A stretch of 4,340 nucleotides of DNA, from the IMG/VR virus record IMGVR_UViG_2695420687_000008; one strand, given 5' to 3'. Shown here one piece after another: positions 931 through 2,069 of this stretch; the first letter of the stretch is position 1; each line of letters opens with the position of its first letter. Under the pieces are notes generated by a model, which made no database searches, was not told the DNA's origin, and was given only the letters and a program-made list of their open reading frames with translations. This stretch comes from a virus. Its lineage: Duplodnaviria > Heunggongvirae > Uroviricota > Caudoviricetes. A program made the translations under genes and the position numbers.

Positions 931-1218
931 ATGACCAAAGACCATGCACAAGGTGTATTTATCCGTTTTATTGATTTTCGCGGTGAACTGTTATTACGTG
1001 CATCCGCTATTGACGGAGTAACTCCGGCGGGTAAAAACGGAGCCGACGAAGCCACTTACGTTTATCTGAACGGCACGCGACTGCTTGTGGAACTTCCGTA
1101 CCAGACCGTACGAGAAATCATTAGCGAAGCTGAAAAGGCACGCCAGGTTAATGGCGATGAACCCTATATCGAAATTATTTGTATGGATTCAGAAGCTGAA
1201 ATACAGAAAGCAGATTAA
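931..1218 (+). CDS. hypothetical protein, 95 aa (small-ORF cluster gene A); start uncertain
   Basis: ORF from ATG 931 to TAA 1216-1218: MTKDHAQGVFIRFIDFRGELLLRASAIDGVTPAGKNGADEATYVYLNGTRLLVELPYQTVREIISEAEKARQVNGDEPYIEIICMDSEAEIQKAD. Natural-looking composition; SD-bearing ORF follows 11 bp downstream. The ATG sits directly at a homology breakpoint with N-masked bases, so no native RBS is visible and the gene may be 5'-truncated. No family recognised. Confidence 0.45.
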   Translation: MTKDHAQGVFIRFIDFRGELLLRASAIDGVTPAGKNGADEATYVYLNGTRLLVELPYQTVREIISEAEKARQVNGDEPYIEIICMDSEAEIQKAD

Positions 1219-1229
1219 AGGGCGTTGTG

Positions 1230-1472
1230 ATGGGCAAAGAATATAAAACTCTCATTAACAAAGCACTTGAGCGTTTTTATTTTCGCTTAAGTGCATCAGG
1301 CGCTCATGCTGAACGTGCGGCCCGTGACTCATTGACCAGAGCAATCCGAAGTCTGTATGACGTGGCTTTTTACGCTGATGATCTGGATGCACTTAACGAA
1401 CTTTCCGAGCTGATCTGTGCCGCAGAGTGCGGGGAACATATTGAACCGTATAAGCTGGGGAATATCGCATGA
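1230..1472 (+). CDS. hypothetical protein, 80 aa, predicted helical (cluster gene B)
   Basis: ATG 1230 preceded by AAGGG (1217-1221) at 8-nt spacing; alternative GTG at 1227. Protein MGKEYKTLINKALERFYFRLSASGAHAERAARDSLTRAIRSLYDVAFYADDLDALNELSELICAAECGEHIEPYKLGNIA. Stop TGA 1470-1472 overlaps the next start (ATGA). No family recognised. Confidence 0.5.
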   Translation: MGKEYKTLINKALERFYFRLSASGAHAERAARDSLTRAIRSLYDVAFYADDLDALNELSELICAAECGEHIEPYKLGNIA

Positions 1473-1582
1473 GTATATTTATCTCATGGCTTGTTCTGAT
1501 TATTTCGGTGGCCTGCGCTATTGGGATTATGCGAATTATTCATTCAATAAAAAAGATTGAACTCTTTTTCACTGAAGAATAA
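1469..1582 (+). CDS. small single-pass membrane peptide, 37 aa (cluster gene C)
   Basis: ATG 1469-1471 overlaps the stop of gene B (ATGA coupling); GGGGA 7-10 nt upstream. Peptide MSIFISWLVLIISVACAIGIMRIIHSIKKIELFFTEE has one hydrophobic helix followed by a basic/acidic tail. Too short for the supplied ORF track; called from reading the sequence. Confidence 0.4.
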   Translation: MSIFISWLVLIISVACAIGIMRIIHSIKKIELFFTEE

Positions 1583-1668
1583 CCGCGCAAATAAGACTCC
1601 AGGTTAAATAAGAAAATGTGAAAACAATCCGCATTCGCGGAGGTATTCGCACACGCCAAGGAGGCGTA

Positions 1669-1872
1669 ATGGCAATTAAGCATTTTCCTGTCGTTCGTTT
1701 CACCTCCAGAGGACGTGAATACGAAGTTGACGAACGCCTGATTACCACAATCGACAAACACCGTTCAGAAAAGGATGCACATCACATCTATCTCACTGAC
1801 GGCACTTACTTCTGCGCCACGAATGTGGTGCGGGTGAACCTTATCAGACAGGTACAGGAGTCACGCAGATGA
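1669..1872 (+). CDS. hypothetical protein, 67 aa (cluster gene D)
   Basis: Strong SD AAGGAGG (1658-1664) 4 nt before ATG 1669. Protein MAIKHFPVVRFTSRGREYEVDERLITTIDKHRSEKDAHHIYLTDGTYFCATNVVRVNLIRQVQESRR. Stop overlaps the next start (ATGA at 1869-1872). The track ORF begins at GTG 1618, but the SD supports 1669. Confidence 0.55.
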   Translation: MAIKHFPVVRFTSRGREYEVDERLITTIDKHRSEKDAHHIYLTDGTYFCATNVVRVNLIRQVQESRR

Positions 1873-2069
1873 CCATTCTGGACTACATCGCTGCCAATCC
1901 GGGTTGTAGCGGTGGAGAAATCGCCGCAGCACTGAATACACCAACCACAACCATTAATGCGGAGCTACGCCGTCTCTGGCGCAGCGGTTCAGTCATAAGA
2001 AAAGAGCGCAAAACAGGCGGTCGCTTTTCTTATCAGGTAAACCCGATGCCGTTTGGGTGTAAGAGATAA
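1869..2069 (+). CDS. small winged-helix DNA-binding protein, 66 aa, FaeA/PapI-like pattern (cluster gene E)
   Basis: ATG 1869 overlaps the stop of gene D; CAGGAG about 10 nt upstream. Protein MTILDYIAANPGCSGGEIAAALNTPTTTINAELRRLWRSGSVIRKERKTGGRFSYQVNPMPFGCKR. Layout (ILDYI..NPG.S..EIAAAL, then helix, then basic wing RKERKTGGRFSY) resembles small wHTH regulators such as PapI/FaeA; this is pattern inference, not a search result. Confidence 0.5.
   Translation: MTILDYIAANPGCSGGEIAAALNTPTTTINAELRRLWRSGSVIRKERKTGGRFSYQVNPMPFGCKR

Follow-up and report, generated by a model that had tools for sequence, protein, structure and literature searches.

Five small genes in a chimeric Escherichia albertii contig and their probable origin in the early operon of P88-like phages

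Introduction

The 4,340-nucleotide virus record IMGVR_UViG_2695420687_000008, referred to below in its whole length as the window, carries between positions 931 and 2069 five small plus-strand open reading frames (ORFs), which we call genes A to E. An earlier note, made from the letters of the sequence, described them as a compact cluster of unknown function, of a pattern seen in prophage early regions, plasmid leading regions or small defence and toxin-antitoxin modules, and as the only part of the window that could be an undescribed system. The locus thus raises the question of what these genes are, whether they form a unit, and whether that unit is new. Our analysis indicates that positions 931-2061 very probably derive from inside the rightward early (Pe/Cox) operon of a P88-like temperate phage, and hold what are most likely early accessory and regulatory genes.

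Identity and distribution of the five genes

By sequence comparison, A to E are gp05 to gp09 of Escherichia phage P88 and of related phages in the genus Xuanwuvirus (Peduoviridae, the P2 family), a placement taken from those reference phages whose records carry a full classification. The same genes, with the same order, overlaps and spacer, are present in P88 (NC_026014, SF19_gp05-gp09), P884B11 (gp45-gp49), phiSM and the prophage of strain E2348/69 (E2348C_RS09635-RS09655), the equivalents in these four being 91-98.9% identical in DNA to the block in the window. The 1131-bp block reaches 98.9% DNA identity with prophages of enterotoxigenic Escherichia coli (ETEC) strains, SE11 and E2348/69; the corresponding values are 97.7% for Xuanwuvirus P884B11, 95.5% for PhiR44_2, 93.3% for Citrobacter phage phiSM and 91.4% for P88, with 99% of the query covered. 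Two of these reference phages, P88 and phiSM, are temperate and active (PMC5285337, PMC6456863).

Among 5426 complete E. coli genomes the block was found in 1366, of which 1301 have 80% or more of it, and the exact protein sequences of A and D occur in at least 1000 public contigs. In the annotations of E. coli genomes, A to E appear as three hypothetical proteins, one DUF4754 protein and one MarR-family regulator. The families of A, B and D are very narrow, with members found in Escherichia, Shigella, Salmonella and Citrobacter, and comprise 107, 62 and 63 clusters, respectively, at 90% identity. In a scan of 185,579 species genomes A turned up in three only: E. albertii, Salmonella and an assembly labelled Vagococcus that is probably contaminated. 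The contig in this last genome (Vagococcus sp. WN89Y, NZ_JBQPOM010000071.1, 226 kb) holds an enterobacterial prophage region (L095 5637-9101) in which B, C and D are 92-99% and A is 91% identical in protein sequence; its Vagococcus label is probably due to contamination or to a mislabelled assembly.

The genes are therefore already known and annotated, and their novelty is low. The earlier note had named high-identity matches to an annotated module of known function as the finding that would speak against a new system; all five genes have such matches (98.9% DNA identity) to an annotated prophage module, but one without known function, and no functional data on them were found in the literature searched on DUF4754, DUF4761, Xuanwuvirus and P88. 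The value of the locus as a discovery is correspondingly small, the genes being annotated in more than 1000 genomes and several phages, and the borders of the cluster having been made by mis-assembly.

Operon context in intact phages

Genomic maps were compared for the E2348/69 prophage, P88, P88_4B11, phiSM, 569R5, Chuche, 520873, PhiR44_2 and SWHEFF_58. A conserved arrangement emerged, in which a leftward integrase and C repressor are set beside a rightward, co-oriented series of Cox, DUF4761, A-B-C, a slot, D-E, a second slot, phrog_3237 and gpA, with one to three tiny ORFs sometimes present between Cox and the DUF4761 gene. The replication protein gpA of P88-type phages, a nicking endonuclease, is 940 amino acids (aa) long, and its gene is directly followed by ParM/ParR-like partition genes (L098, phage P88, 8856-10131). 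Both the gene order and the B/C and D/E overlaps are the same in nine reference loci. P88 also possesses homologues of the P2 proteins C, Cox, A and Ogr, and its backbone is therefore of the P2 type.

A broader view was provided by 76 IMG/VR loci chosen by the presence of A. B, C, D and E follow in order in 71 of them, the other five lacking E only; DUF4761 lies directly upstream of A in 77 of 77 IMG/VR loci. The gap from C to D measures about 90 nt in 46 of the 76 loci, 356 nt in 6 and 531-547 nt in 24, the longer forms, about 40% of loci, holding one or two extra genes with no assigned function (phrog_9338, phrog_16975). The distance from E to gpA ranges from 517 to 2586 nt and marks the second variable slot. 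The 'five-gene cluster' is thus two backbone blocks, A-B-C and D-E, split by a moron slot and followed by another.

Further hints of modularity came from a mosaic relative in Salmonella enterica (CP191473.1; L094 5657-7899), whose DUF4761 gene and D are 92-94% identical to the E. coli type while A and B are only 52% identical, and in which a different transmembrane (TM) peptide takes the place of C, likewise overlapping the end of B. This pattern suggests that A-B-C evolve as one module apart from D. In the same Salmonella locus, and in phage Chuche, E is swapped for a phrog_4144 gene. Relatives of E with 44% identity occur in the early-left operons of Shiga toxin (Stx) phages, and one with 32% identity lies beside bet in Serratia phage Eta; none of these has a D-like neighbour, and E is more mobile than A, B and D.

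Of the three settings offered by the earlier note, the prophage early region is accordingly the correct one, given both the Xuanwuvirus identity and the operon context. The cluster is not a self-contained unit: the five genes come from within a longer operon, which mis-assembly has severed on either side of them.

Coding status and borders of the block

The five plus-strand ORFs are present with the lengths originally given (Table 1; the fifth as an apparent 66-aa frame at 1869-2069), as are the ATGA overlaps of B with C (1469-1472) and of D with E (1869-1872), through which the members of each pair are translationally coupled. As to the Shine-Dalgarno sites of the earlier note, purine-rich motifs do precede B, C, D (AAGGAGG) and E; at A the native upstream sequence has been lost to an N-junction. 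Nor is E a complete gene of 66 aa. Its true product has 81 aa, and homology ends at 2061, which is the 3' border of the phage piece in alignments to P88, P88_4B11 and the E2348/69 prophage, with complete divergence thereafter. At the 5' border, alignment to three reference phages places the beginning of homology about 7 nt before the ATG of A, within the N-run at 924-928.

Since the contig is chimeric, and both the end of ORF E and the region upstream of A are artefactual, one might suspect that the ORFs themselves are non-coding, either chance frames or products of assembly. This is scarcely credible, however. Judged by their conservation, all five are real genes, because they are intact and syntenic in independent complete phages and show a synonymous excess. 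They stay open across the nine phage or prophage genomes compared (seven for E) and are under purifying selection, with mean ratios of nonsynonymous to synonymous polymorphism (pN/pS) of 0.25 for A, 0.11 for B, 0.43 for C, 0.21 for D and 0.17 for E. Matches to PHROG and Pfam families have E-values of 1e-38 to 1e-62, only the 37-aa C being more weakly backed, given its pN/pS of 0.43 and its variable C-terminus.

Table 1. Coordinates of the features discussed (positions in the window unless a locus is named)
Feature	Position	Strand	Remarks
Gene A	931-1218	+	P88 gp05 homologue, 95 aa, phrog_3800; acidic, isoelectric point (pI) 4.6
Gene B	1230-1472	+	P88 gp06 homologue, 80 aa, DUF4754, phrog_2549; acidic, pI 5.3
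Gene C	1469-1582	+	P88 gp07 homologue, 37 aa; start overlaps stop of B (ATGA)
C-D spacer	1583-1668	+	Empty form of insertion slot; 3' half highly conserved (53 loci)
Gene D	1669-1872	+	P88 gp08 homologue, 67 aa, phrog_3459; basic, pI 9.4
Gene E	1869-2061	+	P88 gp09 homologue, 5' 64 codons only; start overlaps stop of D (ATGA)
Foreign DNA	2062-2069	+	Gives last two codons (K, R) of apparent ORF E and stop at 2067-2069
Filled C-D slots	L008 3457-3867; L009 4737-5147; L094 6767-7527		
Junctions	near 275-353; 924-928; 2061/2062; about 2159; 4220-4231		N-runs at 924-928 and 4220-4231
EF-Tu fragment	2-220	-	Residues about 242-313
ApbC fragment	355-921	-	Residues 107-295
rdlD antitoxin RNA	2216-2281	+	Rfam RF01813, 86.5 bits; upstream of yhjV as in E. 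coli
HAAAP transporter YhjV	2656-3954	+	
DppF fragment	3987-4217	-	Last 73 residues only
AT-rich piece	4232-4340		Unrelated

Comparison with phages 186 and P2 and with defence systems

The position occupied by A to E, between the Cox/Apl switch protein and gpA, has a counterpart in 186 (apl-cII-fil-dhr-CP79...-A) and in P2 (cox-orf78-B-orf80-83-A), where it is likewise taken up by several small ORFs in the same orientation, which in 186 are annotated as non-essential. Neither a tblastn search of A to E against the 186 and P2 genomes nor a comparison of P2 and 186 early proteins (186 fil, dhr, cII and CP79-83; P2 orf78, B and orf80-83) with P88 gave anything better than an E-value of about 0.1, and the early accessory set of the P88 type is therefore wholly different.

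If P2 and 186 may serve as guides, transcription of A to E would start at the Cox-proximal early promoter and would await infection or induction of the prophage; in a stable lysogen, the C repressor would keep them silent. Their place in the operon corresponds to that of cII-fil-dhr and the non-essential CP79-84 of 186, and of orf78, B and orf80-83 of P2. Their likely role, by the same analogy, lies in early accessory and regulatory functions such as those of fil, dhr and CP79-84 of 186.

Defence cargo of P2-like phages has its hotspot between gpA and the portal gene gpQ (Rousset et al. 2022, PMC9122126), while A to E lie upstream of gpA and so outside it. This position in a lytic early operon, the co-orientation of all five genes with that operon, their lack of a promoter of their own and their standing as conserved lineage backbone rather than variable cargo make it very unlikely that they constitute a prophage-borne toxin-antitoxin, abortive-infection or defence module, in which C would be the membrane toxin and B or E its antidote or regulator, common as such modules are in prophages and suggestive as the small overlapping gene pairs, the hydrophobic 37-aa peptide and the predicted DNA-binding protein may appear. 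In a PADLOC scan E showed no more than generic winged helix-turn-helix (wHTH) similarity (best 8.9e-4), and a match for B (0.012) was spurious; an NCBIfam scan of A to E gave nothing beyond generic wHTH similarity either, with no toxin or antitoxin match. With E being swappable besides, the undescribed defence or toxin-antitoxin system envisaged in the earlier note is left unsupported. The hotspot itself is filled in the E2348/69 prophage, where it contains a pair of genes for an AAA ATPase and an S8 peptidase (L001 19597-24534).

Gene products

No meaningful sequence or profile matches in the PDB were found for A, B or D. The AlphaFold2 model of A comprises five beta strands, a long helix (residues 57-74) and a sixth strand, a beta+alpha arrangement. 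A profile search of A against 1.84 billion representatives yielded about six clusters at 50% identity, all of them small ORFs without Pfam domains; two matches to repeat proteins in that search were judged spurious. In nine database clusters of A (P0031, P0032, P0037, P0044, P0052, P0072, P0085, P0086 and P0088) the frame shifts into the open +1 frame (window 1085-1246), all of them ending in '...KQIKGRCDGQRI'. Because the shift sites are scattered, these variants suggest sequencing or assembly indels and not programmed frameshifting.

B is the most conserved of the five, with 100% aa identity to P88, E2348/69 and phiSM, and matches Pfam DUF4754 (PF15946) over positions 1-80 of its 80 residues (2.8e-54, 181.7 bits, cut-off 27). 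It is apparently helical, which does not conflict with the helical protein of the earlier note, and has no PDB relative, the top profile match being a designed helical repeat (E-value 0.005). C, for which no family matches were obtained, has a single predicted N-terminal TM helix of about 24 residues followed by a tail of basic and acidic charges (grand average of hydropathy, GRAVY, 1.40). The earlier description of C as a one-helix membrane peptide holds, and the P88 annotation labels it 'membrane protein'; it is intact in nine of nine genomes, with a variable C-terminus.

D is modelled as a small all-beta protein with weak matches to FlbD/SwrD-like folds, and a Foldseek search of D against BFVD gave E-values of at least 0.01. 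The closest known folds for D and A are those of FlbD/SwrD-like small phage beta proteins and the RemA and LytTR beta folds.

E is, by its family matches, a small basic winged helix of the FeoC/MarR-like kind and is predicted to bind DNA, in agreement with the wHTH protein of the earlier note. In its full form (PHROG 1687, phrog_1687) it has a pI of 10, and matches the Pfam families MarR_2 (9.3e-07, 29.4 bits, cut-off 27) and HTH_24 (1.5e-06, 28.1 bits, cut-off 21.9). Its closest solved relative in a phmmer search is the FeoC-like YhgG (1xn7; residues 3-63), at an E-value of only 0.012. Like FeoC/YhgG and MarR it has one wHTH domain, about 60 residues long; it lacks the Cys-rich wing of FeoC, however, its C-terminal helix is distinct, and it falls far short of the roughly 140 aa of dimeric MarR regulators. 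We also considered E as a replacement of the late activator Ogr, and rejected it on finding that P88 has its own homologue of P2 Ogr, an unannotated gene at 34476-34634 of NC_026014 that comes right behind the tail gene gpD and whose product is 41.5% identical to P2 Ogr over 53 aa.

Composition and fold offer some guide to what these products might do within an early operon. E would act as a small, sequence-specific DNA-binding winged-helix regulator, and D, as a basic beta-protein, may bind nucleic acid or protein or partner E. The acidic A and B could bind host or phage proteins, and C, a peptide produced along with B, would insert into the membrane. A bolder reading takes A-B-C and D-E as lineage-specific host-takeover or counter-defence modules of Xuanwuvirus with undescribed activities, in which, for example, B and C could inhibit some function of the envelope or of division in the host, or D and E could form a new DNA-binding regulatory pair acting on the conserved palindrome described below. 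We consider this doubtful; if it were true, the function would be a widespread one, as the phages are in about a quarter of E. coli genomes. Conserved as it is, and carried by about 25% of complete E. coli genomes, the accessory set of the P88-type early operon is in any case a reasonable, if unremarkable, target for a screen of phage 'dark matter'.

The spacer between C and D

The spacer that separates the two backbone blocks contains a perfect 14-nt palindrome, TCCGCATTCGCGGA, at 1628-1641, 28 nt upstream of D, as well as the AAGGAGG of D. Across 53 related loci the palindrome varies at a single loop base only, with no covariation, and each phage genome has one copy of it; the RNA fold of the spacer has a z of -2.36. 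It could be a protein-binding site, a candidate being an operator for the predicted wHTH protein E, or an RNA hairpin. We rejected the spacer as a terminator like tR1 of 186 or as a structured RNA, given the lack of a sense-strand U-tract, of covariation and of any Rfam match; no canonical intrinsic terminator was found in the P88-type block at the position of 186 tR1.

The palindrome bears directly on whether D-E, or the whole cluster, might be an anti-defence cassette of the acr/Aca kind, in which an inhibitor (D and/or A and B) would be accompanied by E as its HTH autoregulator and the palindrome would be E's operator. Perfect conservation of the site just upstream of D would fit such an arrangement, but it is present in single copy and without covariation, and no promoter-like site was found between C and D. 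The direct coupling of the small ORF D to a small wHTH gene is also as expected of a cassette; yet D is constant while E is swapped (for phrog_4144, in Chuche and Salmonella), whereas acr-aca operons behave the other way round, and no D-like genes precede the homologues of E in lambdoid phages. A place in the early operon is what one would expect of counter-defence genes and A, with its pI of 4.6, is acidic, but no similarity to known inhibitors was found, no dedicated anti-defence library having been searched. Taken together, these points lead us to regard an anti-defence cassette as improbable, and a fragment of the early accessory and regulatory series as the better account of the block.

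Origin of the window

From end to end, the window is identical with contig CDRK01000192.1 (4340 bp), which belongs to a draft assembly of E. albertii (GCA_000936005.1). This contig is a mis-assembled chimera of tuf, apbC, prophage and rdlD-yhjV-dppF sequence together with an AT-rich piece, and is so called because it contains internal fragments of EF-Tu, ApbC and DppF, N-runs at two of its junctions and host genes that match E. albertii. On both sides of the five-gene block, the ORFs come from the interior of housekeeping genes that are not linked to one another. Identity of these host pieces to E. coli is 87-90%, and the YhjV protein of the window is an exact match to E. albertii proteins.

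Gene-neighbourhood inference from the window is therefore invalid, the neighbours being meaningless. In contrast to intact P88-type phages, the block in the window has no DUF4761 upstream, lacks the last 17 codons of E and is flanked by E. albertii fragments; where Cox and DUF4761 upstream and gpA downstream would lie on the same molecule, ApbC and rdlD/YhjV fragments stand instead. These absences reflect how the contig was assembled and not the genes themselves. In practical terms, CDRK01000192.1 should be handled as chimeric.

A second, independent assembly break at almost the same point as that of the window is seen in a metagenome contig (ENA ERZ761554 NODE_394; L007 1815-2282), in which hypA is joined about 14 nt upstream of the ATG of A, giving a 155-aa HypA-A chimera. 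Two breaks so near the same point suggest that assemblers apparently break at the edge of the block, which is common to prophages with different immunity regions.

Among the host pieces, the strand opposite rdlD (2165-2318, minus) is also of some note. The expected Ldr toxin ORF is seemingly cut there to 'MTL-stop' near 2166-2177, and a sub-threshold sok-like match lies on the same strand. The region may be a decayed copy of an Ldr/Rdl type I toxin-antitoxin pair, or may reflect another assembly join.

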